A DNA stretch of 60,670 bases, filler included, from Sphacelaria rigidula (lineage: Eukaryota): NCBI GenBank assembly GCA_964200075.2. It is 4 parts of 4 records of this genome, joined end to end, with 100 filler letters (N's around TTAATTAATTAA, not from the genome) between each part and the next. Parts side by side here need not be neighbours in the genome. Positions count along the whole stretch, not along the records: positions 30,388 to 45,480 come from CAXNAA020001910.1; 3 more parts are not named here. One strand, 5' to 3'. The stretch's first letter is position 1, and each line of letters opens with the position of its first letter. Below, in pieces: positions 3,626 through 54,335 of this stretch. The notes beneath the pieces are model-generated. The model saw only the letters and a program-made list of their open reading frames with translations, was not told where the DNA came from and did not search any database. The position numbers were made by a program, and so were the translations under genes.

Positions 3626-5082
3626 TCTTGCGGCGATTTTTCAGATACCACGGCGCTAAAAATTAAACCTTGTGACACGTACTGTCAGTAGAGCTTGTGG
3701 GGAATGTTTACGCTTCTATAGGCAGGGCAACGGGACCGCTTAAGAGTATCACTGCGATACTCGTTGAAAGCAAACACTGCTGCGCTAGGCAAGGTGAAGT
3801 TCATGCACGATCACAGTCATCATGCCCTCTTGCTCTGGGATGTACTGAGACCTACTTTTACAGTACAGAACAGCGCACTGTCATGGTACAGATAGTATAG
3901 TGCAGCACAATAGTAAAAGTACTGACAGTGAAGTCCGAGGTGTCCTCGTGCGCTTCACGCCTGTACAAGATCTGCTTTTTGATTCCGAAACGACGCTTCA
4001 TTTGGGGATGATTCTCATGTCAAACAGGCACCAAGTCGAAAATAGACCAGAGTCAGCGTGAATTAGACAAGGAAATGAGATGCAGCTTTGAGATATCCAA
4101 CTGTCCAGAGGTGTGTGGGCATAATTAAGTATTGGAATGGGTATAAGAGCACGACACCCCCCCATCTTGGGTCAGCAGGATATACACATGTAGTACTACA
4201 GGAACGTAGCGCAGCGAATGTTTGTGTGAGTGACGCCTCTGTATCCTCGCCACCGCGTCCCAAACGAAGTCAAGAAAATAATTCAATAAATCTTATCTAG
4301 CCCGGAAACGAGACAACTCACATTCACAGAGCTGGTGGGGGGAGGTGGGCTTCCATGCCGACTGCGCTTGGTAGGCAAAGAAGGCGTTCCAGCACCTTTT
4401 ATCATGCCGATATCACGAGCAAATCCACTTTTGTCTCCCTTTTGCGTCCTGTGCTATGTATGGACTCGCTCAGTTGAAGACAGCTGCGCAACAACTCAAG
4501 TCTAAGCTTCAATCGAGAGACCTACGTTGTTGAAACACCATCCTCATGGGTCATACAAAAGTATAGACGTTGTTCCAGAGTAGGTTGATAAAGATAATAG
4601 GAAGCACGGCCTACAGGAAGGCTCGCACCTCTCTTGTTTCGACAGACAACAACGACTATTGCTCCACAACAACAATTGTCTTATGTCCTGCGGCGAAACT
4701 GGTACAAATGCAACCCACGTACCTTTTCTATGTGTATACCTTTTCCATACCGGCGGTTACAAAACACGCCTCGACAAAAACACAACACAAGTTTGTTCAA
4801 CCGACAGTCGACAGCTGACCAATGGGTAGATAGCGGCAAGATAGCGCTCTTGATCGGACACAATCAATACCGAGATTTTTCCACTTTCGACCGTCGTTTT
4901 TTAGCCCGACCCGACACCGAGACATGTCGCCCCCCGCTCACTGATGTACTACTGACTCTTGTTCTTCAAACACACGACAACACAGACAGCGGGAAGAATA
5001 TCACCTCCAGCGCACACAACAACACCGACAGCGGGAAAATCATCGCAACTGCCATCATCATCGTCAACCCACTGACATCACC

Positions 5083-5305
5083 ATGTCGGAGCCCGTGACT
5101 AAGAAGCAGAAAACGCCCAACACTCAGTATGACCAGCTTGCAGCCCTCACCACCATAGTGGCCGACACGGGCGAGATTGCTCAAATTAAAAAATACAAAC
5201 CCACCGACGCAACGACTAACCCGTCCCTTCTTTACAAAGCCGCGAGCGCGCCCGAGCACCAGGATCTGGTCGATGATGCTATCACCTACGGGAAGGCTTT
5301 GGAAG
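5083..5305 (+). CDS. TAL1: Transaldolase, exon 1
   Basis: MSEPVTKKQK...TTIVADTGEIAQIKKYKPTDATTNPSLLYKAA contains the ADTG and DATTNPS transaldolase signature motifs. Donor GAAG|GTGTGT, phase 1. Confidence 0.95.
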
Positions 5306-6132
5306 GTGTGTGTGCATCTGTGGTCGGGTTGCTGTTGTTGCCGTCAGTTGCGTTGGTGTTGGTGTCTATGGTGTTGGTGTTGGTGTGGTTTTGGCTCATC
5401 ATGTTTCTCTTTGATTCATGAAAATTGGACGACGGGTTTGTTTTTGCGGACCCTCTCCTGTGCAACGTCGCGGCATAGATTCGATTTTCATGTTGTTTCG
5501 TGTATGCCGACTGCCTTGTATGTTGGGTTTGTTTGCTGTTTCCCGGGCGAGTGTGCTCTAGTGTTACGAGAGCGAGAGATGACGAGAGAGTCCTCGGGAG
5601 CGGGCGGCACACTGAGAAGCGACTCCTGTGCATTTTCCGTATCAAATGACGACATTTGTATGCCGGTTTTCGATGTACAAAATCGGATGTTCGTGTCGGG
5701 TAAAAACGCATCATTTTGTCCCGTTGTCTGTACAAATTATATGAAAATGTAGTTCTGCTGGGCTGTCATGCATGGGGTTCGCTACCTGTACGCAACGACG
5801 CAAGCGACGTCTCTTGGCGAGTGAACTACCAACATGGTCTGTCGCTGCTTTTGCCCATTGTTCATGGGTTCGTTGATTCAAATTGCTGGGACGTGCTCAT
5901 GTGATGACGGTACTGTCCTGTCTGTTATAGTATTGTTATCCAGTATGTCATGAACCCACGGGGAGTCGGCCTAACCAGGCCTTCACGAAACGCCGCAAGA
6001 AACCCGAACAGACGCCCCTGTATACAGTACCTTGCAGGTGCATGGTAATGTAACGACCACTTACAGCAGTACTAACCCCAGTGTAAACAAATCTGAGGTC
6101 GTGCACCGACGGTAGAGTACTGAAAACGTCCT

Positions 6133-11258: not shown

Positions 11259-11438
11259 TATTCCACACCCTGGACAATATATGGTCAATAAATGCAATAG
11301 ACAAGAAGTGTGCTGCATAAAGTATAGGCCTGTTGCAACTATTGCCGGCCGACAATACTCGCAATAGGCTTGTAGTTTATGCAGTACGTTTATCGTCTAT
11401 TGTAACTTTTGACCATATATTGTCCAGGGTGTGGAATA
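11259..11438. mobile_element. 180-bp palindromic MITE bounded by TA
   Basis: TATTCCACACCCTGGACAATATATGGTCAA ... TTGACCATATATTGTCCAGGGTGTGGAATA; arms pair almost to the centre. Related termini at ~17672, ~26338 and ~51840. Confidence 0.85.
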
Positions 11439-11546
11439 CTCTTCCTCTCCGTATGCACCAACAGCTCGCAGCGCAAATACCGCCATGGGAATGTGTTGGT
11501 CTTGTTTGTCAGCATAAAAACATATGTATTTGTGTGTCATGTTCCA

Positions 11547-11549
<3 letters not shown>

Positions 11550-11585
<36 letters not shown>
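11550..11585. repeat. (TG)n microsatellite upstream of the exon 2 acceptor
   Basis: About 18 TG units. Confidence 0.95.
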
Positions 11586-11588
<3 letters not shown>

Positions 11589-11621
11589 TTCAACTTCCGT
11601 TCTTGGTGTTCGTTTCTGCAG

Positions 11622-11801
11622 GCGTCTCTGATGATGAGCGCGTATCGAAGACGATGGATAAGCTGTCCGTAAACTTCGGGGTGGAAATTCTCTCGCTGGT
11701 GGAGGGGTATGTATCGACGGAGGTGGACGCCAGACTGAGCTTCGACACCGAGGGCACTCTCGAGAGGGCTTACAATATCATCTCGCTGTACGAGGCTGCG
11801 G
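11622..11801 (+). CDS. TAL1: Transaldolase, exon 2 (later exons are not in this segment)
   Basis: Acceptor TTTCTGCAG|GC; GVSDDERVSKTMDKLSVNFGVEILSLVEGYVSTEVDARLSFDTEGTLERAYNIISLYEAAG; donor GCGG|GTGAGC. Phase 1 matches exon 1. Confidence 0.95.
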
Positions 11802-12220
11802 GTGAGCGAGCGAGGCCATTTCTCCCTCTTTTTTCTTCTTTTGAATTTTTTGTGGTTTTATTTCATGTTTCTCGGTTCGTGTTCATTCGAACGAAGCCGG
11901 TACGTGAGTGGCGTTCGGTTCACGTCTGAGACCCCAGGACGAACAGAACTGCCGCAGCTGGTGATCTGCTGAAACCAATGGGTTACATACAGATGTTTTA
12001 CCTAATCTTGAGTTGAGAGCTTAGCTGACGTGTCGTAGTATCTTGGAGGTAGGTGTGTCCGAGTTCGCCGCCAATATATTCATGTTACATTTTTGAAAAC
12101 GGCTCACCCTAACCTTAAACCCGACCCAAGGCATACTGAGAACCATAGGGTGTGCGTCGGCAGATCTCGATTCGGCATCCCCGGCACCGATTTCGACAAA
12201 AGCGCGTTCTGTGCACGCTA

Positions 12221-15094: not shown

Positions 15095-15194
15095 NNNNNN
15101 NNNNNNNNNNNNNNNNNNNNNNNNNNNNNNNNNNNNNNTTAATTAATTAANNNNNNNNNNNNNNNNNNNNNNNNNNNNNNNNNNNNNNNNNNNN
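15095..15194. other. Artificial linker N44-TTAATTAATTAA-N44
   Basis: Six-frame stop linker; identical copies at 15,193-bp spacing. Confidence 0.98.
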
Positions 15195-30287: not shown

Positions 30288-30387
30288 NNNNNNNNNNNNN
30301 NNNNNNNNNNNNNNNNNNNNNNNNNNNNNNNTTAATTAATTAANNNNNNNNNNNNNNNNNNNNNNNNNNNNNNNNNNNNNNNNNNNN
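30288..30387. other. Artificial linker N44-TTAATTAATTAA-N44
   Basis: Identical to 15095-15194. Confidence 0.98.
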
Positions 30388-30600
30388 CTTGTACCCCGCG
30401 TCTTCATCTATGGACACTATTTCGTCTTGGTTTCCGCCAATCTCCTGCCACACTTTCTTGACTTCTTTATTCCACCTTACTCCAGCCTGCCTTATCGTAC
30501 TTTTCTCCCATACAGCCCTATCAACTATAGCTGACAATCTTCTTCTTTGCATGTTCTTTACGCTATACTGCCATCGCAATTTCCTCATGTCTCCGTTTGT
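30388..30600 (-). mobile_element. LINE ORF2 fragment (post-RT region)
   Basis: DMRKLRWQYSVKNMQRRRLSAIVDRAVW aligns with DMRRLRWKYSVKTGQRKRLPAMVEGAV at 54128-54215. Confidence 0.85.
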
Positions 30601-30879
30601 TGCAGGGAGGGGGGCAAGACAGACTTTGGTTGGAAAAGAAACCAGACGAACAGAAACCCTTCGCGGTAAGCCGATGAAAACTTCGCGGTGAGCGACTTTG
30701 ATGCGAATGTCCGACTCGTTGAAGGCTCGGTTTACCGAGAAACGAGGCATTCGTGCAGATCAGCACGTAAATCGTTTGGGCGCTAGATGGCATAGCTGGT
30801 CGAGCCCAGACTACCCACGAAAAAAACAAACGAAAAACACGTGCCCGCTGTCATGAAGCAATATCAAACGAGTCGGGGA

Positions 30880-31076
30880 AATCTGTAAGTATTCTTCGTA
30901 AATCTGGATGAGTATAAAAAGAGACTCCATATAGATCCCACACTTCACGTTCCCACCAATTAGCACGGGGGAAAAGGCTTACAACAGAAAAAATGGGGTT
31001 CATCTCATTTGTATGGGTTTTAACCCTAAGACGTACATTTATCTCAACTTGATAATTCATAAACAAATTCAAAACG
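30880..31076 (-). pseudogene. nad9: NUMT: mitochondrial nad9 fragment
   Basis: [10 protein letters not shown] (frameshift) [53 protein letters not shown] matches the complex I 30-kDa subunit signature. AT-rich codons, no intron. Confidence 0.93.
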
Positions 31077-31077
31077 T

Positions 31078-31253
31078 TATGGTGAACCCGCTTGGCCAAA
31101 TGATATATTTTATATGTTTCCAATTTGTATCTCGGGGACTTTTGCAATTGTTATTGGATTAGCTGTGATGGAACTTCAGCTGTAGGAGAAAAGGCAAATC
31201 CGTTTGCAACACCATCGGAAATTTTACCTGAGTGGTATTTTTTCCCGACATTT
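31078..31253 (+). pseudogene. petD: NUPT: plastid petD (cytochrome b6f subunit IV) fragment
   Basis: Hand translation: [32 protein letters not shown] (1-nt deletion) [34 protein letters not shown] and PEWY motifs present; missed by the ORF track. Confidence 0.95.
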
Positions 31254-31257
31254 CATT

Positions 31258-31305
31258 GAGGAAGATTTTACTAAAATTGTTTTGTTAGCTCCAGAGGTAA
31301 TATAG
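31258..31305 (+). pseudogene. rpl14: NUPT: 3' end of plastid rpl14
   Basis: EEDFTKIVLLAPEVI* matches the L14 C-terminus (F.KIVSLAPEV[LI]*); the stop abuts the rpl24 ATG as in the spc operon. Confidence 0.85.
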
Positions 31306-31455
31306 ATGCAAAAAAAATTAAAAAATATATATATTAGAAATCGTGAAAAAGTAAAAGTTATTTCTGGCCAGGATAAAGGAAAAAATGATACAGTAAAAAA
31401 AAAATCTTGTATAAAAAATCAAGTTATTATTAAAGGAATTAATATAAAAGTTAAA
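31306..31455 (+). pseudogene. rpl24: NUPT: 5' part of plastid rpl24
   Basis: MQKKLKNIYIRNREKVKVISGQDKGK...NQVIIKGINIKVK is the L24 KOW motif. Extremely A/T-rich and truncated. Confidence 0.85.
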
Positions 31456-31662
31456 AATAGGGGAGTAAGGGGCCACGGGGAAAAAAAAAAAAACACCGTT
31501 GATTGTCATGTCTCCAGGTGAAGCCAGCTTAGACTTCCTCGAGCATGCAGGCACACAAGCACACAAGCATACACGTAATCTTACACCACACATGAAAACG
31601 CGCAAGGTGCATGAACACACCTAACCGCACTCCACCAAGAACTACGAACAGCGAACACGAAC

Positions 31663-32085
31663 CTGCTGTACCGATCCTCCTTTCCCATTCCCGTCCACAC
31701 CGCCAAGAACTCCCGCCTGCCCCAACCCAAGCCCTAGCCCCACTCCCCCACCCCGGGCACCCCCCGCGCCGCCGCCGCCACCCCCCATCACCACCATTCC
31801 TCCCCTGCTGATGTCAAGCCCGCCCACACTTCCTCTCCCCAGGTCGAGCACGCTCATGTGGCCATTGCTGGTGGGGCCGCCAGCGGTGCTATTACCGGCG
31901 CTGCCACCAGCGCCAGCGCCGCCACTGCCACCACCGCCGGTACTATCCCCATCCCGTGGCTCGATGGACTTGGAGCGCGAATAGTTGATGTAGATCTTCT
32001 TGTTGCCGATTTTGGCCTCTTCGTCCTCCTCGAAATGTCGCATGGTTGCTTTCGCGATGCTCACGCTCGGTAATTGAACCAGCGC
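31663..32085 (-). CDS. PTB/hnRNP-L-like RRM protein, third visible exon
   Basis: Acceptor TTTACACAG|GCG; ALVQLPSVSIAKATMRHFEEDEEAKIGNKKIYINYSRSKSI (RRM beta3 to beta4) then a Gly-rich linker; donor CAG|GTTCGT. 423 nt, phase 0/0. Confidence 0.88.
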
Positions 32086-32654
32086 CTGTGTAAACGTCAT
32101 GTTCCAATTGGTGTATGTGAGTGTGTGCGCGCGCGTAGGGGGTGCAGAAGGTTGTCAGAAAATGATCAAGTTTGTACAAGTTGTGATAAGGGCTGTTATT
32201 AACGGGAGTTATTCTCCATACTTGTCATACATTTTCATATACCATAGTCACACTTTGCCTTCATTGTCATCCATTCAAGGATGGAAAAAATATATGAAAA
32301 AAAAACATTAATACCGCCCTTTAAGACGGTGTGGAACACGCATCTACTGCCTGTGCAAAGCTTCCGACATGCATGAACGCCAGGGAAGCTCAGCACAACC
32401 CTCTTGACAATATGTGTAGCCGCCAGCAAATACGTGGGAAATGTGGGAGGGGGGGGGAGGGACGGGGGGAAACACGGGGGGGCTAATTCCAAGAAAATTT
32501 CCAGCATCCTACATCACAACACGTTTGTCCCATGAATGCTTGACCCCCGATACAAGTCAGTCACGACCCAATACTTGTTTCAAGGATTGACGGTATTCGA
32601 AAATCACAACACACAACCCATTTCTCAGTTTCCTCGGCCTGTCTGTGACTTCAC

Positions 32655-32720
32655 CTGCCCACTGAACATCTTCACCTTCTCCACAGCACCAAAACAGCTT
32701 AGCAGCGACAGCAAGTCACC
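32655..32720 (-). CDS. PTB/hnRNP-L-like RRM protein, 66-nt exon
   Basis: CTGGCAG|GGT...CAG|GTGAAG; GDLLSLLSCFGAVEKVKMFSGQ supplies helix 1 and beta2 and joins the flanking exons in phase 0. Confidence 0.85.
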
Positions 32721-33332
32721 CTGCCAGTCATGGCCATCAACAAAGTCACAAGCATGGGACAAACACGAGATGCATGTATTTGAGGTGGCATCATGGGTCA
32801 GCGAGGCGGGGAGGGTTGGGGTGGGGAGAGTCACTTTTCCAAAAGTACCGGTACTACGGCTGTGCCAAGGTTTTTGATACGGGTACATATTGATACGGGT
32901 ACATGTCAAGGGCTTCGCGACGATTATAGCCATTTGACCGCGACGCCCATTTTCGGAACAACATCTGCTGACTGGCAGTCACACGGAACAATTTCTTCAG
33001 ACGAGAGGGTGTTATTGGCGCTTTCAGGCAATAGGGAAACACAACATTCATAACAACCGCATACTGACTTTTTATTTGCTGTTACGATGCCATAATGCAT
33101 CATATATGACGAGTGCTCGGTGGGTCCACCAGCCGAGTGGGCTGGTGTGTCCACGTTCGCGTGCGGAGAGATAGTCCGACTGTTTTGTCTCCAGAAGTCA
33201 ACAAAACTCGGCTTCGCCCCGTCGTCGAGAAAAAGAGCTTGCAGAAAGATGCACCAATCCTCGGTGTCTTGTCTCCGCATACCCGTGTTTGGTTGGGTGG
33301 GCGATGATTCAAATCGGGTCCTACTTTCCATG

Positions 33333-33486
33333 CCGTTTCTCGGTGAGCAGGAACCGATCGTCAATGAACACCTGCCCGTGCTTGGTGATCAAATAGTACC
33401 GTCTGATCACCCCGTTTCTCGGTGAGCAGGAACCGATCGTCAATGAACACCTGCCCGTGCTTGGTGATCAAATAGTACCGTCTGAT
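33333..33486. repeat. Exact 75-bp tandem duplication
   Basis: 33333-33407 is identical to 33412-33486, with a 4-nt spacer. Confidence 0.95.
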
Positions 33487-33810
33487 GGACGGGGTACCAT
33501 AACATCTACGTCTATATGTGTACATTGCTTATTGAGTATCACTTTTGTAACAATCAGTGTATCTTCATGTCGACTCTTTTTGTCAAAAATAATTAGATAA
33601 ATCTAAGGGGTGAGCACCAGCTGCGGCTGGTGTATCCACTCCGCCTGAACCCGTTTGGATCAATCCTATCAATCATTGTAAATACCCCTTGCTAGCTTCA
33701 TCGTTTAGCGATACTACACGTACAGATTAACCCCCCCTGCCAAGGTTGAAATCGACACAAGGATTACTCTCTTTTGAGCACTCACAGACGGACATACCTG
33801 AGGGGTCAAA

Positions 33811-34425
33811 GGGTTCACGCACGTCCACGTCAAATTTACCGTGGGACGGGACCCCGTGGCAGTATCCTGGTGTCGGCCGCGGGATTGCGTGTGAGGGCAT
33901 GGCCTCGTGGGCATTTGCAGCAGAGGGCAGCCGAGAGTAGAGATGGTACGACAGTACATACAGCACAGCGTGTGGTGTGGTGGTGCGGAACAACGGGTCG
34001 TATTCGGTCGTATGGAGGATGGTGGTACAGCAACACTGCCGTCTGCATTGGAGGGATGGTCGGGCATGCTGTGCCTGCTGTGTCGCACAACCAACATCAG
34101 AGACCTCTCAACGGGTTCACGTACGTCCACGTCAGATTTCACCGTGAGACTCTGTGCCAGTATTCCCATGCGGCCGCGGGCTAACGGGTGAGGACATGGC
34201 CCCGTGCGTATTTTCAGCAGAGTGCAGCCAAGAGTAGAGAAGGAACGACAGTACATACAGCACAGCGCGTGGTGTGGTCCGTCGGGATAATGGGCCGTAC
34301 TCGGTCGTATTGGGGGGTGGTGGAACTGGAAACTGGTACGGTACGCAGCAACACTGCTGGCTGTATTGGAGGGTTGGTAGGGCATGCTGCGCCTGACTGT
34401 ATCGCACAACCGACATCAGAGACCC
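33811..34425. repeat. Diverged tandem duplication, ~302-bp period
   Basis: GGGTTCACG.ACGTCCACGTCA.ATTT at 33811 and 34113; ACGACAGTACATACAGCACAGCG.GTGGTGTGGT in both units. Confidence 0.9.
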
Positions 34426-35074
34426 CGAGGTAGCAGCAAAAAAGCCGCCCAACTGCCCGGGCGTGGTCGAACCACAGTGAAAGGAGTGACGGTCACTTCC
34501 TACTCCGCGGCCGTATCGGTGTCAAGTCCCGAGAAACGTGAACACGGCGCTCCATGTTTCCACTGCTGCTGCCATGACAACGAGCACAGAACAACGCAAG
34601 GGCCATGCATCATGACATAACACGAAGACAAAATACTCCCCCCACCCAACCCCCACCCCCATTACTACATACAATCCACGTTTCTCCCCGACAACTAACA
34701 GCATGCGTTGAAGATTTTGTCCGCACGCGTCCGGCCTACATTTGAAACACCACGGAACCATACCCGCGCTCGTCGCCTGTAGCACGTACACCCCCAACCA
34801 TATACGCGACGCCCTTCAGCTGTTCAGCAACAGTCAGTGGTGTGTCTTGAGTACATGCATGTACTGCTGTTGGTGCAGTCACGTCGGGCGCTGAAAGGGT
34901 TAATTCGACCGGCAGGGTGGGGCTTCGACATCGGTTTTCACTTGAAAATTGACTCAAGGCCAACGTGATCAATTGACCCGTTGACCCCCGGTTATGCCCA
35001 TATATGGCATCGGTATGTTCGTGTTCACCTGAAAAAAATGGAAGGTTTACGTTGTCCGTCTGCGGGGACCTTGA

Positions 35075-35172
35075 CCCTTAGACCGCGAGGTTGGTCTTCT
35101 GTTGATTCGACATCAATTTCAAGTGAAAATAAGTATGCATGATTCAGAAAGGCTAATCTCGCGGTCTAAGGG
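35075..35172. mobile_element. 98-bp piggyBac-like MITE
   Basis: Perfect 15-bp TIR CCCTTAGACCGCGAG / CTCGCGGTCTAAGGG, flanked by TTGA and TTAA. Confidence 0.85.
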
Positions 35173-35176
35173 TTAA

Positions 35177-35279
35177 CCGTAAGACCGCGAGGAGGCGGGG
35201 TCACCTGCTGAATCGGCATCATTTCACTCGAGAGAAGCACGCATGATCCAGATGGACAACCCGCACCGCGGTTCAAGGG
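35177..35279. mobile_element. 103-bp piggyBac-like MITE sharing a TTAA with the previous copy
   Basis: TTAA|CCGTAAGACCGCG...CGCGGTTCAAGGG|TTAA. Confidence 0.85.
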
Positions 35280-35525
35280 TTAAACGATCGAACTTTGACC
35301 CTTTACCCTTTGAGTACGAGAGTCAGTCATATGGCCTTGCCGTCGTTTTTCAAGTGAAATTGGTTCAACAGATGACTTGTACTCGCAGTAGAAGGGCTGA
35401 ACCATGGTGGAATCAATCATCGTAGTAGGGGTCCCAGCACTTCAGGGGTCAAATGAATGAATGATTCATCTGTAAATTACTTTATTTTAGTGTGACTGAT
35501 TTGTACGGTACGATTCAATCCTCAA

Positions 35526-35627
35526 CTCTTAGACCGCGGTGCGGGTAGTCCATCTGGATCACGCAGAATTTCACCAAGAGAAAATTGATACCAATTCAGG
35601 TAGTGACCTACCCTCGCGGTCTAAGGG
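35526..35627. mobile_element. 102-bp piggyBac-like MITE, inverted relative to 35177-35279
   Basis: TCAA|CTCTTAGACCGCG...CGCGGTCTAAGGG|TTGA. Confidence 0.8.
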
Positions 35628-35634
35628 TTGAGCT

Positions 35635-35815
35635 TTGTTTTTAGCGTTGTAACCCAGGTACGCGCAGCCCAGTCACGTGGAATGGCAAGAATTGCGTGGA
35701 GACTTTTTTTACCAGCGGTCAGCTTTCTACCTCTTTCGAGCAATCAGGTCTGAAAAATCGTAGATTTGGTGATTCGAACCGGCGATGATTTGCCCGAATC
35801 GTGCAGCATTTTGCC
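35635..35815. repeat. Dispersed repeat, paralogous to 52070-52260
   Basis: AGCGTTG.A.CCCAGGTACGCGCA...CACGTGGAAT...CTTTCGA.C.ATCAG..CT shared between the two sites. Confidence 0.75.
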
Positions 35816-37954
35816 GTTGATCGCCAGCCCGGCACACCGCACTATGCTGGGACCTCGCGCCATACCAGCAGTGCTATACTGTATGAGTGGTAGAAGTATA
35901 GTGGATAGGACTTGTGATAAGTGATTGTGAACAAACTGTAGCGGGACCCCTACCGTACAGGTACGAACCTAGCGACTTCATGACACAAGTCGTACCGCGA
36001 TGAGTTTAACCTCTTCCCGCACGGCACAGCCTCGTTCCACTACTCTCGACCATCGGGGTACGAACCGACTACTTCGCTCGAACTGTTCGGTCATGTACCA
36101 CTTCAGCGACGGGGGTGAAATCTGACGCGAACGATGCTCGGCGGTTGAGTGGTCAAGTTGCATTTGGACAACTTAGAGCAGAGTTAGTGGGTTCAAACCC
36201 TGGTATCGCCCCCCCCCCCCAAAAAAAGACACAAGTTCGATGGCGATCTATCGGAGTTTGCGAGATTCTACAGTATTTGATTCCGAGAGGCTTCGCACTC
36301 GTCTCTTGAGGGAGAGGGGAAAAAATACCAAACCACGATATTGCGAAAGAAAAACACTCGAGTGATAGGCGAGCGCAGCGAAACGAAGCGACTCGTCTGC
36401 AAGGACAATACTCACCCTTCGGCGACGATTTTTCTGGGGTCATCTCTATTGAAAGGCAATACAGGTAACTCTCACGAGGCCCGAAGACACTGTTCCGCGA
36501 TCAAGAGCTGTTTACTCTCGGTACTTGGCAAGAGGTAATTAGGACGGGTCTTGACACGGACGAATGGGCTTCATCGACTTCCCGACAAATACGACGAGAC
36601 GAGGACACTTCACTTTGCTGATCAATAGCTACAGCTCGAGCCATGGTCAGAGGGGGGGACTGCAGCCGCTACAAGCGGTTATGCTGTAGGTCCGTGTCAA
36701 ACAAGTTCGTGCGCCGCCCCGTAATCGATACCTTCATATTAGCCTAGCCTACGGACGCACATCATTAATCGAACCGGCCATTATGATTTTTTTGTATCTC
36801 TTAACTTTATAAAAGTAAACACAAGGAGTGGGTGAGGTAGGGGCGGGGGGGGGGGAGATCGCGACAACCCATTGTATCGCGTGACTGGAAGGATTGTTTT
36901 GATCTTGTACTGTTACGACCTTTTTAGCTGGACCTGGGACACGACCCAACGGAGAATATTCTTTGGGAACCGGAGCGCCGAGCGACCGAGGGGTCTGTTG
37001 AGGGCATGCCGACGTCAACGTTTCTGTTTCGGCTTGCCAATACAGTAAGCGGGAACCCTCGAGTCTTGCTGTTGGAGGTATCTCAACCTCGAGATTCTCG
37101 GTATGTTTCACAAGTAATTTTCAGTCACTGTAAATATACGGGGGCGCTGGAATTTAATACACCTCTGTCGAGGGGTGGCGACAGGCTGCTGGTGCCCAAT
37201 TAGCTCATGAATCAGCCAGAAACATATACGCGAAAATTCTAGACTAGTTCACTACATCATGGTTTGCCAGACAATATCGAGCGAATATGGCCATAACAAC
37301 GTCGCACGGTACTTAGAACAGTACAGCACAGCACAGCACATCGGGCAACGAACAAAACAACGAACGCGTCAGTCACACGCACAGAAACTCAACAGCCTGT
37401 GGTCCCCCAGTCCACAGCTTCGTCCTTCAACATAAACATATGCATGCCAGGTGCTGGAGAACAGAGACTACTGTTCGCTGATAATTCGGAAAATAAGTTA
37501 AAACGTGCGTCCTCTTGTATGTAGACGGGAAAACAGGAAATAGGCGTTTTCCTTTCTTGTGTTTGGGGATGGTGAAAGGGTTAACTCTTCGCCATCAAGA
37601 GTAGGTCGGCTGTTGAATCGGTATCAATTTTACTTGCAAGAAATACACATGATCCCGATGGACTACTCTCAGGGTATCATCAGGGTTGAGGATGGCATGT
37701 GAACACTTTGAACTGGCCTGAAAGCACGTGTTTCGGGTTTCCAAGTCGAAGTGGCGATATTGAGAGAGGGGAGGGCTCATCGAGGATGGGGTGATGTGCT
37801 ACGATCAATGCACGTGCACGGTAGGGATCAAAGGAGCGATCGATGCCACAGACGAATCGTATCTCTTGAGGGGGGGTTACTTCTCGTCCCGAAAAAAAAA
37901 GTAATGAAAATATAAACCAATGAAGGCAGTGGAGAGCAAGTTTGTCGTGGGTAC

Positions 37955-38180
37955 AAAGTTCGACTGCACAGTCGACGAAGAAAAGGGACCGCTGAGCCCC
38001 TCTCGCGACAAAAAGGGCGAGCACCGCAGAAAAAAGGTAGGGGTACTGTAATGAAACAAAAAAAAAACGGGAAAAAAACGCCGGTAGTGACCATCCTTCC
38101 TGTGTGACCCCAGCTGACGCGCCTACATATATATATATATATATATATGACGAAAGGTGTGGACTGGCGTGCAGAACAGA
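37955..38180. repeat. Dispersed non-coding repeat, copy 3 (same family as 1905-2130)
   Basis: GTCGACGAAGAAAAGGGACCGCTGAGCCCCTCTCGCGACAAAA...GCACCGCAGAA...TGACCCCAGCTGACGCGCCTACATA. Confidence 0.85.
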
Positions 38181-41100
38181 TGGCTTGACAACCCACACTC
38201 TCACTGACGATACCACGAAGAGACAACATTGCTACAGGGACAACAGAAACAGCAATCTACTTGCTGTTGAATATGTCAGGAATCCAGAGTTCATTTGAGT
38301 TACAGCACCTCGAATATTCGAACTTGCCATGACACGCTTTTTCTGTCGCATAATCAAAATTTCAGAACTTCTTCTCTGATATCAAACTGGTGCCGCGCTA
38401 TCTTGATAAAATATGGATCTTCACAGAAGGAGAGATGGATCAATACTGGTTCGTAAGTGATCGTTACGGAGCCAAATCGACACGGACGACCAACACATGA
38501 ACGACCAGTGAACCAAAACATGACCACACGTATTGCTGCCTGAAGGTCGAACCAGGACCACGGGAAGCTCAACAGTTTACTCGGAGAATGTTTTGGGAGG
38601 CTTCTTTGATTTTTCATCAAACCGTATCCACGGTGGCCGTAAAAAAAATGGTGCGAACGTTCGATATTTGGATCTTTAACCGCGCCGTTGGCCCCCTGCG
38701 CCCGCCAGCGTACGGGGTTCACAGTCTCATCAACCTCTACACAACGCACACATTGCTCAGAGAGCATCCTGTGTAACATGGAGGTGGAGTAGCAAATGCC
38801 GTACAAAATACGGACGCCACGCACGTCATCATGAATAATACTTCCAGCAGCAACGCAACTCTTTCTCAGCTACAGGGCGTTTCACTTCGTCAAGACCTCA
38901 TCACAAGACGGAACTCCCTTCAGCTTGCTCGGTAATTTCGGCAAATCGAAAATGAACCGGGACAGAATCTGCATAATTAAATTAGCGGGCTTCGAAGCCC
39001 GCATCACGAGCCAAACCTCCCACGCACAGATTACGGTAACCCAAAGTGAACTGACAAAAGCGCGACTCTGGCCGGGTGTTCTAACTCGGCACTGGCCCAA
39101 AATTGAACACCTACCCACGATCAGACGGGGGACTAAAACATGGGACACGTCCTATTTCACCACTGTACCGCAGCAAACACACTCAAGCCTTCCCTCATGT
39201 GTTGGAGCTCCCACTGTCTGTTGTGTTGTGGTGTATTCACGCATTGCGAAGACGGTTTGGATTGCATGAGCTGCGATATTGTCGTTGTGTTCGTCTCTCC
39301 AGAAAACAATGTTAGTCGGCCCGCAGTGCTGGCTGCACACTGTTGAAAGCTTCATGGGTGAGTTGACTGTTTCGTCTTCGGTAAGACGAACAACGCGCTA
39401 TCCGTTACTGCGACACCCCTGCTGGTGCCGTGCGTTGGGCGCCTGCACTCTACCGTACTGCTGTACTGTGTTCGGAGTACAATACTGTATCACCTATGGT
39501 ACTGTATTTGTCTGAAACGCGCCACGAGTTAGACCGCACAACGTTTGGTTTTAGATTACTGCCCTGGCGATTCCCAAGCGAAATGGAGCGATATGATTGC
39601 TAAGTTACCGAGCGATCTGTCCCGCTCCAAATGCAGTCTGCAGTAATTTCATGATTTCGTTGTGGCTGCGATCAACTACTGCTTCGAGTCGAACCATGGA
39701 TATTTGTGAACATAGATACAGCGTTTTTTCTTGTGGTGGCTTTAGTACTTTTCGTATTTTACGAGCGCAGGTACAGGGTAGAGTCATGGTTGGGCCCGCC
39801 CGTTGCCAGGGGGTCCCTGGTCGGCTTTTAATGGGGTCAGGAAAATAATGAAAACTAACTGGGGCTGCGTGAGGTTATTCCCAGGAAGATCTATTTGTGC
39901 CACACGTCCTGCGACTACTGCTGTACTATTGTAGATTTATGAATGATGTTCCCTAAGCAAAGCTACTCGTAGTGTCCATCGTACGAAGGACTTGAATAAA
40001 AAAATGTTAGAAGCGAGACCCGCCGAAATGGAAATTTCAAGGACGATTTTTACGGGCCTGGGCGGAGGCAACCTTGAGATACGGATAGTGCACATATGCA
40101 CGTGATATGCACGTGAAACTCTATTCTGCTTAACTTGGTCGAAGTATAAAGTAGGAAATACACTGGTATACTACCCCACACAAGAGTGGAACGATCCACT
40201 ATCGATTATACCTGTGGTCTCCTGTTTTCATTTCTTCTCGGCATACGACAAAACTTCAACACGCCTGAACACAAGAGTCACGGATTGACACATGGTAATT
40301 TTAGGTGAACGGATTGGGGTACGCTCTACTGCGCAAGAGGCAGCCCCCGTGGATCGGTTGGAGGCCGCGAAGTCAAGTACCCGCGGTGGGGACGAAACAG
40401 AGTACAGGAGATTTACGGTACGCCAACCAGTTCATCGGGATAAACATACTCACACCAAATACAGTGTCACAAAGGCAGCATATAAATACGTACATGTCAC
40501 ATGAGCGGGAGGAGGGAGAAACTCATGCATGTACTGAACGCATGTCGGTGATGGAAAAAACGCCAAAACCGAGTTCCTTCCGACTGCAAGCTCTCACTGG
40601 GACACCCATCCGTCAACGACATTGACATAAGGTAGGATGAACTCATACGCGAAAGATAAAAACAATGACGCAGTTCGTCGACCAATGCTGTGATTGGGGT
40701 ACAACCCGACATGAGCGCAAGCGCCAAGACGTACGGGGATAGGAAGGGTGCGTTTCGCGTATACCGGTGCCCAAAACGTCACCTCACGAGCAAAAAAAGT
40801 TGCCAGCTACACTCGATCTGAACAAAGTTGAGGAATAACCTCGAAGACCGAAAAGTGCTGTGGTTTTGATATCACGATCATCACGATGAAAAAACAGGAT
40901 GCATGTGCGCCTGGCTGTCGTTTCGAACTTGTACCCCCGATAAAGGCGTTCCGAAAAATCATCCACGCACTGCAAAGTCCGCACAACGCATTTGACACCG
41001 CATAGGACACTCTACAAGTATCGAACACTTGACCTTGTGTGATCAGTTCGTATGCAACATTCGTGTAAAAGTATACGAACAGAAATCACCACATCTGACG

Positions 41101-41880
41101 TAAGGGAGCATGCTGTTGCGATATCAACACAACAACGCAGAAACTGCGGTCATGACAAAACAGTAACTGTTGGCTGCACACACATGCCCTCTCCGCCAAA
41201 ACGCTTCACAACTTTTTCTTCTGGGAGAACCGAGTGACTGTAAAGGATTATATAAAACCAGTGGCAGCGTTTGTTCGGCGATGACCACGTCGTACAGGTA
41301 CACTATCTGTGGTACGAGCAAAAGTAAACATGACTGAACAACTGTTCGGTTCAGCAGCTCGCAGCACGCAAGACTCAGGTCCGTTTGAGGCGCGATATTC
41401 TTTCATCATCGTATGGAGCGTCCCCTGCAGGCGTTCCGAAGAGGAGGATGAGGAGAACACCCCAAATCGAGAGGGCAGATCAAGAGCTGAAATCTTCGAT
41501 GTAGAACACACAAGAAAAACCAGCACAACACAGCAACAACGCAGAACACACAACCAAAAACAGCACCAAAAAAATGCGTCCTGTACACACCCGCCCGCCA
41601 CATTGAAATGCGCGCACCGTACATGTAGAACCGCTGTAGGGGGAACGCATCAGTAGCCGAGAAAGTTCCCACTATGAACTTCATACAAGACAAATCGTGG
41701 CGACAAAATGCGGTAAACACCGTCGGCAGAATGCATCACACGTTGCGTGGCCTGCCCAAGTCGATCGAATGTGTGGGTATTTCTCGAAAATCACAGCAGG
41801 ATCAGCAAACAGGGGCTCGCCAGTGTAAAAAGGCTCCATAGAACGCCCAAAACACGAAAAACAAAACACTGATGACTAAC

Positions 41881-42879
41881 CTGGGTGACGGGATGCCCAA
41901 CATTCCTCACGTGGAGCACCTTCGAAGGCTCCAAATCAAAGTCGCCAGGTCTGGGCGAACCCCCCCCACCCCCTCCTCTCCTTCTTCTCGGCGAAATATC
42001 TATCTTCAACTCCCCATTCCCTGCTGCTGTATTATCGACGCCACCTTTCGACCTAGGTGACAGGCTGTTGCTGCTGCTCCCAGTGCCACTCCGAGAGCGC
42101 TGCCTATTGTGCCCACCCGGGGTATACTGTTGGTGGTTGCTGCTGCTGCTGCTGCTTCTGCTTATGTTGTTGTCACGGTCGCGGCTCCGGCTCCTGTTCT
42201 CCCGCCGGCCATTGTAGTTAGTGATGGCCGAAGCCGCGCCGATTTGGGGGGACAACGATACAGAGGACATGCTGCCAATGCCACCGCCACTGCCCCCTCG
42301 GCGATGCCTGCGGCGGCGGCCCCCACCGCGCCTGTTGTTCTGTCCTCCCGAACCCGACCCTCCTGCTGCCCCCCTCCCGGACGCTGCCCCTCTGTTTCTA
42401 CTTGTCGATCTCCTCCTTCGTCTGCTGTATCCTCTTCTACTGCTGCTGCTCCCCTCTGGGCTACTACTCCTGCTACTGCCCCTGCTGCTGCTGCGGCCGT
42501 GGCTACTGCGGTCCGAGTTACCATGGCTACGCATGCTGCCTCTGCTTCGGTGGCTCAGTGTATCATCTTCATTGTTGCCATTTTGAAGAACTATGTTGTG
42601 CTCGCCCCCGTGCATGCCGTCATGATGTTCGACGGGAGATGATTTTTGCTCCCTGCCTTCGGACACGGAGTTCATTCCTAGGTGCGTGGTGACACTGTTT
42701 TGGAGATGCTGTTCATGAAATACCCCTTGTTCTTGGTCTTTCGTCTTCAGCGGCGACGAGGAAGGGCTCATGCTTTCAACCACATCCATGCTGGTCGCGA
42801 TATTGCCATCGTCGTGCAACATTCCTGTTCGAGGATTGCTGTTGTTGCTGTTGTTGTCCTCTGCAAACAGATGCGTCAT
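41881..42879 (-). CDS. PTB/hnRNP-L-like RRM protein, first visible exon (long Ser/Arg/Gly low-complexity N-terminus plus start of RRM1)
   Basis: Open frame of more than 330 codons ending DLEPSKVLHVRNVGHPVTQ|GTTAGT, matching the PTB/hnRNP L RRM1 start PS[RK]V[IL]H[IV]R. First ATG at 42879; the frame is open past 43002, so the true start is uncertain. Confidence 0.85.
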
Positions 42880-44114
42880 GCCTTGTGTATCTTCAGTCCT
42901 CCCCCCGCACCCCGCGCCCCCTTCCACCTTGCCCAAATGAAGTTTACCCAACGCGAAGAACAGAAGTTTCGCAGGAACCACAATGTCACACACAAGCCAC
43001 AAATGTTTCGTTGCACGGTCTTTTCGTATTCAACGAAACTGCTACACACTCAGCCTCGTTCTCTTGACCGTCTTTCCTGCCATGACGAAGTCAACAATAG
43101 ATAACGAGAGGCACGAGGAACCAGCAGTGGGTAAAGGCAGCCCAGTAAACTCAAGTACAAACAGTACACAACAGTTCAGTAGTATTGCGCTGACTGTACT
43201 GACTGTACTGACTACTGCCATACTCTTATTACACCATCTGTAGTCCTGTACAGTTGCGAAAATGAACGAATCGCCGATTGCGCGCATGCATGCATACCAG
43301 CGGAGGAACCTGCACTGGGAAGAATCAAAAACACAAAACACGCGTTCTTGTGGAGAGGCCTGGGACTCAGGTATGTTGGATTTCTAAAAAAGTAAAGTCA
43401 CAAGTGAGAATGGTAGTGTCTGTTGCACGCGTGAAGGGCCGTGTGCACTGGTAGAAAGGGATCAAGCAACCAAAGCATTTTTTGCCAGGAGTATTCATCA
43501 ACGAACAGCGTTGTTCTTCTGCCATGCTAGCTATGCGCGTAACGGCATTAACAATGGCAGAATTGATGTGGGGTGATGTGCAAAAGGGCAGTGGTGGTGG
43601 CCGCCTCGTGAGTTCATGTGTTTGATGTGTGTTCTCTCGCGGTGTATAATTATATATACCGAAAACTAGACGTCCACGTGCTTGCATAAATGCAGGTAGT
43701 ACATATCTGATGCATGCTTGTGCAGCAAGACATTCCTCATTATAGTGCCTGACCTGGACTACTGCTACGCACGAAGCCCCGCACAAGCCTTTGATTACTC
43801 ACCCTTCGTGTGGCCGCTGCAAAAAGTAATGTTCGCTCGGGGCGGCTGGTCTCTTACTTTGTGTAAGGACCCATCGATAACGCATACCCTGTGTCGTTTT
43901 CTAAACCTGTCTAGTTTCACTATGAACCATTTTCAATAGGGCACAGTTTAGTGAAACACCATGTACAGTCTGTAGTACACCGTGGTAGACAACAACACCA
44001 CAGGAGACAGCTTTCTACACGCCTCGGGCTTATCACATACATTGTGTAGAACACTCTTGGATACATGCACGCTTTGGGTTTGCCGTTGATATCCAACTAA
44101 CATCATTCGCGACG

Positions 44115-44513
44115 ATGTACTTCGTGTACGGATGTCCCAAGGTGCTATCCCTCAAGTCACATCAGCAACAACATGGCGCTGCCACCCCACCCGTCGACAA
44201 CAGCTCCAACGTAGGCCAAGAGGAAATCCTGGCTATCGCCTTCAATCCCTCGGGTTCCCTGCTCGCCGTAGCTTCCACATCCCGCATTTGCGTATGGTCC
44301 GGGGGCAAAGACCACGTCCCGCTGGGATCCACCGCTGTGCGATTGCGAGCGCTGTCTTCCGGCGGCTCGGGCCTTCTCTGGCGGCGAGATTCTGGAGCAG
44401 TGAGTGTGGTATCCGAAGCGGGGAAAGTCTTGTTGGTATCGATCACCCGGAAGACCGGACGCGCGCCGACTGTGGGGGAGAGGTTTGCTGTGCCAGATTG
44501 GTTTGAGCCTCAG
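44115..44513 (+). CDS. RIC1: RIC1 (Rab6/Ypt6 GEF subunit, WD40 N-terminus), exon 1
   Basis: MYFVYGCPKVL resembles the conserved RIC1 start MY[FM]xxGWP, followed by WD-like ILAIAFNPSGSLLAVASTSRICVWS and LLWRRDSGAVSV. Donor CAG|GTGTGT, phase 0. Confidence 0.8.
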
Positions 44514-45480
44514 GTGTGTATGAACGATGAAGAGATATAGGTCTCGAATGTTTGTGCTGGCAATGAAACCTCATGGGTGCATTTGTTTCCAGCAGCGATG
44601 CTTGCATGACTGTGATGATACGTTACGGGTCCTTGATGGAACAATCCACGGTTAGGACAAATCATCACGACTCAAAATCATCGAATTCACGATTCCTTCG
44701 GCCTGATCGCCAAAAAGAGAGAAAAACGTGCATCGCTGGTTCAAGGGGTATCCACGCAACTTTTGCGCCNNNNNNNNNNTCGTCACGAGTCGACTCACTA
44801 TACTAAAACCAAGTAATTTTCAGACGAATCATTATTTGTCCGACCCTTGGAACAATCAGTAAAGGGAGCTGAAGCACCAAGGAATTGCCCCAGAGAGATA
44901 CACCTTGCACCCTCGCCGTGCAATTTTCTGCTCCGTGCATCATTGACGCAGCACTCTGGCCAAGTAATTATCTCCCTGATGGTGGGTATGTGGCACGTGT
45001 ATTCCCAAAGGTGTGGACATGAATTGTTTCCCTTGTGGACTATGGCACGATGGTGCAGTGCGATGTGTTCTGATTTGGATCCTGCCAGAACATGGACAAG
45101 ACGAGTCGTGTGCCAGAGACGGCCATGATGTCGGAAGGGAAAGCAGTTCGCTCGCGTGCTGGTTGGGTACGCATTTTCCTATAACTCTGCATGATCTCGA
45201 GTTTCTCTGTATATAAAGTAGCAGGGTGACTACAGTATAGTACAAGTCGGTGTGCAACAGTTCAATAGTTACCTCGTTGCACCGGACAGGGTAAGCAACG
45301 CCGGACTTGTTGTAAGAGCAGTGGTGAAAAAAGTCACCTTGTATTTCGTGGTTTCTGGCGATTCTTCACGGTACAGACGTTGATTGTTTTTTCCAGCGTT
45401 TCGCCGGCGATAAGGTCATCTTATCACAGGCACCGTAGGTAAGGTACCGTACCGAGCGTACCCCCAGTATTTCCCGGGGT

Positions 45481-45580
45481 NNNNNNNNNNNNNNNNNNNN
45501 NNNNNNNNNNNNNNNNNNNNNNNNTTAATTAATTAANNNNNNNNNNNNNNNNNNNNNNNNNNNNNNNNNNNNNNNNNNNN
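45481..45580. other. Artificial linker N44-TTAATTAATTAA-N44
   Basis: Identical to the other two linkers. Confidence 0.98.
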
Positions 45581-53413: not shown

Positions 53414-54335
53414 TCATTTGTTGCTTGCCCAAGTCGTTTGACCATTGACCACGCATCCCTTTCGAGGCGGAGCACCGTTCCTACTCCTGATGAAGGCAAT
53501 TCCAACATTCTGGCGTTCATTACGTTTCTTCCACACACTACACAAAAACCTTTCACATATCTGATCCCCGTCCTGTTTCGCCGTCTGTGGCCACAATCTA
53601 TCTCCTGGTATAGCCATTGTTTTCTCCCTAGTGTCTACTGCATCAAACGACCACATCTGTTCACGTCCCTCATTTTCCCCTCTGGCGCGCCCCGTTCCTC
53701 CTTGCGTACTTCACATTCTGCAACAATATGAGTTCTGCTCCCTATTGCTTTGCCACAGGGGCAACTCTGTGCATCTACTTTCCCCTCCTCTTGGCTACTG
53801 GCACATTTATTAATTCTCTCTGGCAGGTGCAGGTCCCCCACAAGAAATCGCAGTTTCATCTTTTTCGCCGCGTCCATTGGGCCATTCGGATGTATTCTCG
53901 TCGCTATTCCCTCCCTCAACCCCCCGTCTCTACAGGTGTTCGTCCTCGTCTACTTTGCGTCTGAGCGCTTCTTTCCCCCGTATTTCCATCATGTCTCTTA
54001 CTTTTGTCCTGTACCCCGCACCTTCACGTATGGACAGTATCTCGTCTTAATTTCCTCTCAACTCCTTCCATACTTCCTCGACTTCTCGATCTCCTCTCAT
54101 TCCAGCCTGCCCTTTCCGAATTTTCTTTCATACAGCCCCTTCAACCATGGCTGGCAATCTCTTTCTCTGCCCGGTTTTCACGCTATATTTCCATCTCAAT
54201 CTTCTCATGTCCCTGCTGGATTCAAGTGGGTACATTTCCAACTCTTCTCTCAATGCTGTACTACTCATCGTTTTCGAGCAGCAATGAGGACAACTGTATT
54301 CCAGACCACCATGAGTACCCCACCCTGAAGAATAG
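53414..54335 (-). mobile_element. 5'-truncated LINE (3' ~0.9 kb of ORF2 with Cys/His motif)
   Basis: ALREELEMYPL...; KLRFLVGDLHLPER...SCPCGKAIGSRTHIVAEC (CxC..H...C knuckle); ends GCVVNGQTTWASNK*, then a C-rich tail at 53363-53406. Confidence 0.85.

Follow-up and report, generated by a model that had tools for sequence, protein, structure and literature searches.

A putative mixed mitochondrial and plastid insertion, probably intronic, in the nuclear DNA of the brown alga Sphacelaria rigidula

In the nuclear DNA of Sphacelaria rigidula, a patch of 580 nt (30880-31459) is made of three adjoining organelle fragments, one of nad9, one of petD and one of rpl14-rpl24. How did DNA of the mitochondrion and DNA of the plastid come to lie end to end at one nuclear locus, and did they arrive in one event or in several? 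A preliminary description of this DNA had reported the same three pieces in the same order at 30880..31455, and all three are present there. Our reading, to which we give a probability of about three in four, is that the patch is a numin, a NUMT and a NUPT together, which resulted from one end-joining capture of mixed organelle DNA in an intron.

The window, by which we mean the whole stretch of DNA that was analysed, has 60,670 bases and is composed of four blocks of about 15.09 kb each and three identical 100-nt linkers. The linkers (44 N, TTAATTAATTAA, 44 N) lie at 15095-15194, 30288-30387 and 45481-45580, with a spacing of exactly 15,193 nt. The patch belongs to the third block (30388-45480), 492 nt from its left end. 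Sequence to the left of 30388 is unusable as context for the patch, as an artificial linker stands there, and features are not readable across linkers. Two runs of 10 N, at 1168-1177 and 44770-44779, are separate from the linkers and resemble ordinary assembly gaps.

Gene fragments were located through stop-to-stop frames and then with Pfam, and the short rpl14 and rpl24 pieces through searches of PDB sequences. Of the 12 public runs found, four were compared with 30388-32600 at 80% likeness. Runs X1 and X3 belong to one study, X4, labelled 'algae metagenome', to a second, and X5, which we guess to be RNA, to a third. In these runs, contigs of organelle type have depths of hundreds to tens of thousands, and nuclear depth, as read on the unique flanks, is 6-65. 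The limits of the pieces and of their surroundings are given in Table 1.

Table 1 Features of the patch and of the DNA around it, in positions of the window
Feature	Positions	Strand	Remarks
Very high-copy dispersed repeat fragment, outside the insertion	30388..30601		At least thousands of contigs, 80-95% identity
Unique nuclear left flank, putative intron	30602..30879	-	Ends GGGGA; GC 0.518
nad9 internal fragment, mitochondrial (NUMT piece)	30880..31078	-	199 nt, decayed; Pfam and mitochondrial-depth contigs
petD internal fragment, plastid (NUPT piece)	31078..31257	+	180 nt; 1-nt deletion frameshift after 31173
rpl14 last codons and stop, with the first ~51 rpl24 codons, plastid (NUPT piece)	31257..31459	+	203 nt
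Unique nuclear right flank, first 203 nt after the donor	31460..31662	-	Begins GGGGA; GT at 31662-31661
Host-gene exon, conserved brown-algal protein	31663..32085	-	tblastn with relatives P0001-P0003; AG acceptor, CAG/GT donor

Identity and source of the three pieces

The nad9 piece was recognised in the minus-strand ORF 30851-31150, which matches the Pfam family Complex1_30kDa with an E of 2e-19. Its best named relatives are brown algae (Phaeophyceae), namely Protohalopteris (83%), Dictyopteris (81%) and Pleurocladia (77%), and a Sphacelaria rigidula protein, from a contig of 38,553 nt, sits in the cluster that is 91% identical to it, in agreement with the earlier view of the host as a brown alga. 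When proteins of similar length were searched with the 99-aa ORF that spans both 30880 and 31078, only nad9 fragments were retrieved, none of which extended over the part antisense to petD. For petD, 31078-31185 corresponds to residues 27-58 of cytochrome b6-f subunit IV (E 1e-11; six of six PDB matches), and the second half, which lies in a different frame, matches Pfam Cytochrom_B_C with an E of 2e-5. The stretch 31306-31458 matches the N-terminus of L24 (best E 1.2e-4, PDB); of the 59 PDB matches listed, one is named only KOW-domain protein and nearly all others are named L24 or uL24. The stop at 31303-31305 is preceded by 20 codons that resemble the end of L14 weakly (E 0.5-1.5), and the PDB matches obtained with them are L14 in three cases out of three, aligned to residues 104-122 of 122. 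Pfam recognised neither the short rpl14 piece nor the short rpl24 piece. The GC content is 0.357 in nad9, 0.383 in petD and 0.207 in rpl14-rpl24, with 0.518 in the left flank and 0.584 in the right one.

The minus-strand ORF 31321-31620, which lies partly in the right flank and partly in the insert, gave five protein matches, all of them long and with 6-31 matched stretches; these were read as low complexity and set aside. When the two ORFs of the window that span an outer junction were looked up exactly in the protein collection, neither was found.

Contigs of organelle depth follow each piece at 90-93% identity. The nad9 block (30880-31078) aligns with record 12 of X3 and record 29 of X5, with 19 mismatches and 2 one-base gaps. 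The petD block (31078-31257) aligns with record 30 of X5, of plastid depth, with 12 mismatches and 1 gap, and the rpl14-rpl24 block (31257-31459) with record 13 of X3 and record 31 of X5, with 14 mismatches and 11 gap letters, the two plastid pieces lying on different plastid contigs of X5. The mismatch between the nuclear and the organelle copy is 9.5% for nad9 (19/199), 6.7% for petD (12/180) and 6.9% for rpl14-rpl24 (14/203). Past every block limit, the loose ends of the contigs translate as the neighbouring nad9, petD, rpl14 or rpl24. As the organelle contigs continue into normal gene sequence at every boundary, the junctions of the patch are absent from the present organelle genomes. The alignments establish the organelle origin and the exact limits of each piece, as well as its divergence from the present organelles. 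Together with the contigs of nuclear depth that bridge the outer junctions, they support the earlier proposal of a nuclear patchwork to which both the mitochondrion and the plastid contributed.

Some details of the preliminary description change with these limits. The pieces had been given as ~197, ~176 and ~200 bp with an end at 31455; the contigs of organelle depth give 199, 180 and 203 nt with an end at 31459. About 4 nt of filler had been placed before rpl14-rpl24, where the contig alignments overlap by 1 nt and the filler is 0. Finally, the rpl14 stop had been described as fused to the rpl24 start. The stop does stand directly before the rpl24 ATG, but this is the native arrangement and not a fusion, as the plastid contigs are colinear across that point.

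Single bases are missing in the window after 31039 and 31046 in nad9 and after 31173 in petD, which makes three frameshifts. In addition, the nad9 translation has replacements at residues that are invariant in eight of eight brown-algal nad9 sequences, for example S for F in GVFF. Among the 28 differing places listed, the window has G or C against A or T in the organelle at 19, the reverse is seen at 5 and the remaining 4 are neutral. This bias fits a drift of AT-rich DNA towards the nuclear base composition (~50% GC). An assembly chimera of present-day organelle reads was also considered and rejected: it would equal the organelle sequence, and 45 mismatches plus indels and frameshifts are found instead. 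The divergence, the frameshifts and the replaced conserved nad9 residues therefore mark the pieces as old nuclear pseudocopies and not as misassembled organelle reads. The patch combines what defines NUMTs and NUPTs, that is, organelle homology, nuclear embedding and a diverged or broken pseudocopy, with weak support for the rpl14 part.

Two other sequences resemble pieces of the patch. In X1, a contig of 952 nt (record 7) lies on the petD piece at 31077-31246 with ~85% identity and then runs on unlike it; its depth, 66.1 compared with 65.5 for the unique flank, is nuclear-like. It may be another nuclear copy of petD, older than the one in the patch, or else the plastid of another organism. 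The second sequence, P0126, is a Sphacelaria rigidula record on an 8,674-nt contig, in which an 83-residue decayed nad9 fragment is annotated as a protein. This fragment is 83% identical to the nad9 piece of the window and has replacements at invariant residues. Since it extends further towards the C-terminus than the window piece, the two are separate nuclear copies of nad9. Gene annotation in this lineage seems to include pseudogenes of organelle origin, and organelle pieces may be mis-annotated in this manner, the fragment filed for Sphacelaria rigidula being one example. Nuclear organelle pieces may also confuse organelle barcoding.

Host gene and outer junctions

At the left end of the block, the dispersed repeat has a summed depth in the millions, and the matching contigs all stop at 30601 in every run compared. 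A second copy of this repeat, 76% identical, is found at 54010-54211. To the right of the patch lies the host gene, whose exon has a weak RRM_5 match (E 0.004, below the Pfam cut-off). In a relative's protein, P0003, this exon is joined to upstream and downstream exons. The upstream exons were located at 32652-32723 and at about 41794-42264, and the downstream exon was found by tblastn nowhere in the window. Record 32 of X5 covers 31800-32088 with 0 differences and carries, at the upstream-exon end, 66 more letters that are off the stretch, as expected of a spliced transcript. A comparison of the host exon with metagenome contigs gave 597 pattern matches, none of which was confirmed by tblastn.

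Because the patch begins 203 nt past the CAG/GT donor of the host-gene exon, and a relative splices this exon, we read its site as intronic; most likely the intron has at least 1,275 nt and leaves the window. The preliminary description had also placed the patch inside an intron, and its distance from the donor and the splicing of this exon in the relative support that placement, with the downstream exon lying outside the window.

Elsewhere in the window, a Pfam scan of the 56 long ORFs (at least 140 aa) found only two transaldolase exons and no further organelle-type domain. The transaldolase ORFs, 4945-5418 and 11321-11926 on the plus strand, match profile positions 1-50 and 52-106 with E values of 2.6e-8 and 4e-12. 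These two successive matches imply that the first block contains a nuclear transaldolase gene, interrupted by an intron of ~6 kb.

The left junction, between 30879 and 30880, is bridged at nuclear depth in two of the four runs, from two studies, by record 11 of X3 (30572-30924, 1 difference) and record 22 of X4 (30564-30924, 4 differences). The right junction, between 31459 and 31460, is bridged at nuclear depth in three of the four, by record 8 of X1 (31288-32600, 1 difference), record 14 of X3 (31368-31701, 0 differences) and record 24 of X4 (31426-32600; 12 differences and 7 gaps, ~1%). Both outer junctions are kept in X4 despite the ~1% divergence of its flank. The insertion is carried by three samples from two studies. 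Cover has holes in X1, with no contig over 30684-30831, and in X5, over 31498-31793, which do not count as evidence. Among the contigs listed for the four runs, none has an empty-site joint or skips the insert.

A direct repeat, GGGGA, flanks the insert at 30875-30879 and at 31460-31464. In the window, a 5-nt flank repeat at a spacing of 580 nt occurs at 0.12% of 59,370 control positions (a chance of 0.0012). The GGGGA repeat suggests a target-site duplication from a staggered break.

One capture or several events

The internal junctions are flush: at 31078, and again at 31257, one T is common to both alignments and there is no filler, an overlap of 1 nt arising by chance at roughly one junction in four and being weak when taken alone. 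The outer junctions are blunt. Microhomology had been suggested as something to look for at the joints, and inspection finds it to consist of these 1-nt overlaps inside.

We favour a single event with an end-joining mechanism. Three short unrelated fragments, one mitochondrial (nad9) and two from separate plastid sites (petD and rpl14-rpl24), would have been ligated to one another and taken up as filler at a single double-strand break in a chromosome. The repair route would probably have been non-homologous end joining, and the break would have fallen inside an expressed gene, in one of its introns. The block would since have decayed neutrally, as a functionless insertion.

The strongest competitor, although we consider it improbable, is that two or three independent organelle insertions hit one spot over time, or were joined later by deletions. 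According to the available part of PMC5570036, organelle insertions become fragmented and nested as time passes, and further nad9- and petD-like nuclear copies seem to be present in the lineage (P0126 and record 7 of X1). The nad9 piece is also nominally more diverged, at 9.5% compared with 6.7% and 6.9%. However, this difference is not significant (Fisher's test of 19/199 in nad9 against 26/383 in the plastid pieces, p = 0.25, with little power at 45 mismatches in total), and petD and rpl14-rpl24 do not differ from each other (p = 1.0). A comparison of divergence had been proposed as a way to tell one event from serial insertion, and its outcome, at this low power, fits one event. Moreover, if the mitochondrial genome evolves more rapidly than the plastid genome, a higher divergence of nad9 is what one would expect. 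The anatomy of the patch also weighs against repeated insertion: the internal junctions are flush within 1 nt and no nuclear DNA lies between the pieces, so that the exact end would have been struck twice. As the serial route needs two later strikes within 1 nt of the end of the insert, one capture of pre-joined or co-joined fragments is favoured.

It is less probable still that the three pieces were assembled beforehand, inside an organelle or as an extrachromosomal concatemer, and then copied once to the nucleus. Plastid DNA is found inserted into the mitochondrial genome in land plants, and flush junctions fit joining at any place. In the available part of PMC6215612, joining before integration is among the options discussed for plant numins. 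However, the organelle contigs of all four runs run straight past 30880, 31078, 31257 and 31459, and the nad9-petD and petD-rpl14 junctions are absent from them. If the pieces were concatenated in the cytosol or nucleus immediately before they integrated, the outcome would be indistinguishable from the single capture that we prefer.

The near-equal lengths of the pieces (199, 180 and 203 nt) could be taken to indicate a defined route, in which organelle DNA would be cut to ~200 nt, for example in programmed organelle degradation, and then captured at a staggered break with a 5-nt target duplication. The secondary plastid of brown algae has four membranes, and DNA from such a plastid and from the mitochondrion would have had to be at the same nuclear break simultaneously. 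This would be the first documented mixed patchwork of a brown alga. We give this elaborate scenario as slim a chance as prior assembly; with only three fragments, their similar sizes carry no supported meaning. A joint release of organelle DNA during organelle elimination in the gamete or zygote is speculation.

Across 31078 or 31257, no bridging contig is found among those listed for the four runs, short-read contigs break within the pieces, and a 26-nt pattern across the nad9-petD junction has 0 matches in the JGI metagenome contigs. An assembly misjoin of real NUMT and NUPT copies of different loci between 30924 and 31288 is nevertheless the least credible of the alternatives, as the pieces have no common sequence able to misguide an assembler, contigs of nuclear depth tie each outer piece to its unique flank in two to three runs, the window's own letter at 31202 has a nuclear-like depth (57.8 in X1 and 26.2 in X4, read only from depth differences), and the loose ends listed at 31078 and 31257 belong to organelle contigs only, none being at nuclear depth. 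The suspicion of a chimeric assembly raised in the preliminary description is thus answered at both outer junctions, by contigs of nuclear depth, and at 31078 and 31257 none of the contigs listed runs across. The capture of all three fragments in one repair event remains the reading that we prefer.

Comparison with known organelle insertions

A quantitative study of nine land-plant genomes describes numins whose junctions are blunt or show microhomology (Portugez et al. 2018, PMC6215612), and the end-joining signature described in the available part of that paper is a blunt joint or 1-7 nt of microhomology between fragments. The patch has adjoining mitochondrial and plastid fragments, as nad9, petD and rpl14-rpl24 abut, and it carries the end-joining signature in its 1-nt T overlaps inside and its blunt outer junctions, a 1-nt overlap being weak alone. 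Similar to the plant numins, as far as the available text of PMC6215612 describes them, it unites both organelles at one nuclear locus, with non-adjacent sources, mixed orientation and decayed pseudogenes, and its junctions are blunt or have 1 nt of microhomology. The host is different: Sphacelaria rigidula belongs to the brown algae, which are stramenopiles with a secondary plastid, whereas the available part of PMC6215612 deals with nine land plants only and has 0 occurrences of 'alga' or 'stramenopile'. Our observation also concerns a single case of 580 nt and not a genome-wide survey.

The NUMTs and NUPTs of algae and protists described in the available parts of PMC3101015 and PMC5570036 share with the patch that organelle fragments of a few hundred bases lie in nuclear DNA and are non-functional. 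Species whose cells contain many plastids are expected to carry such insertions (Smith et al. 2011, PMC3101015; Hazkani-Covo and Martin 2017, PMC5570036). The stramenopiles surveyed in the available parts of these two papers are diatoms, Aureococcus and Nannochloropsis, with no brown alga among them; mixed insertions are not treated there, and the word 'mosaic' has 0 occurrences in the available text of PMC5570036. A full-text literature search for NUMTs, NUPTs or mosaics in brown algae found no description, and 'numt' and 'nupt' have 0 occurrences in the main text of a large brown-algal genome preprint. Mixed mitochondrial and plastid patchworks are known from land plants and, apparently, have not yet been described for brown algae.

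From a biological perspective, the patch would be ordinary, a neutral and decayed insertion, and one case says nothing on the rates or routes by which organelle DNA escapes. Non-homologous end joining may take up filler DNA while it repairs double-strand breaks, which is a general mechanism. It is summarised in the background section of PMC6215612, in the part available. Similar to filler captured at breaks, the patch consists of unrelated pieces ligated with 0-1 nt of homology, next to a short putative target duplication, although here we infer the mechanism only from the anatomy of the junctions. On this reading, a repair scar known from land plants, filler DNA of mixed organelle origin, extends to a brown alga and with it to a lineage with secondary plastids.
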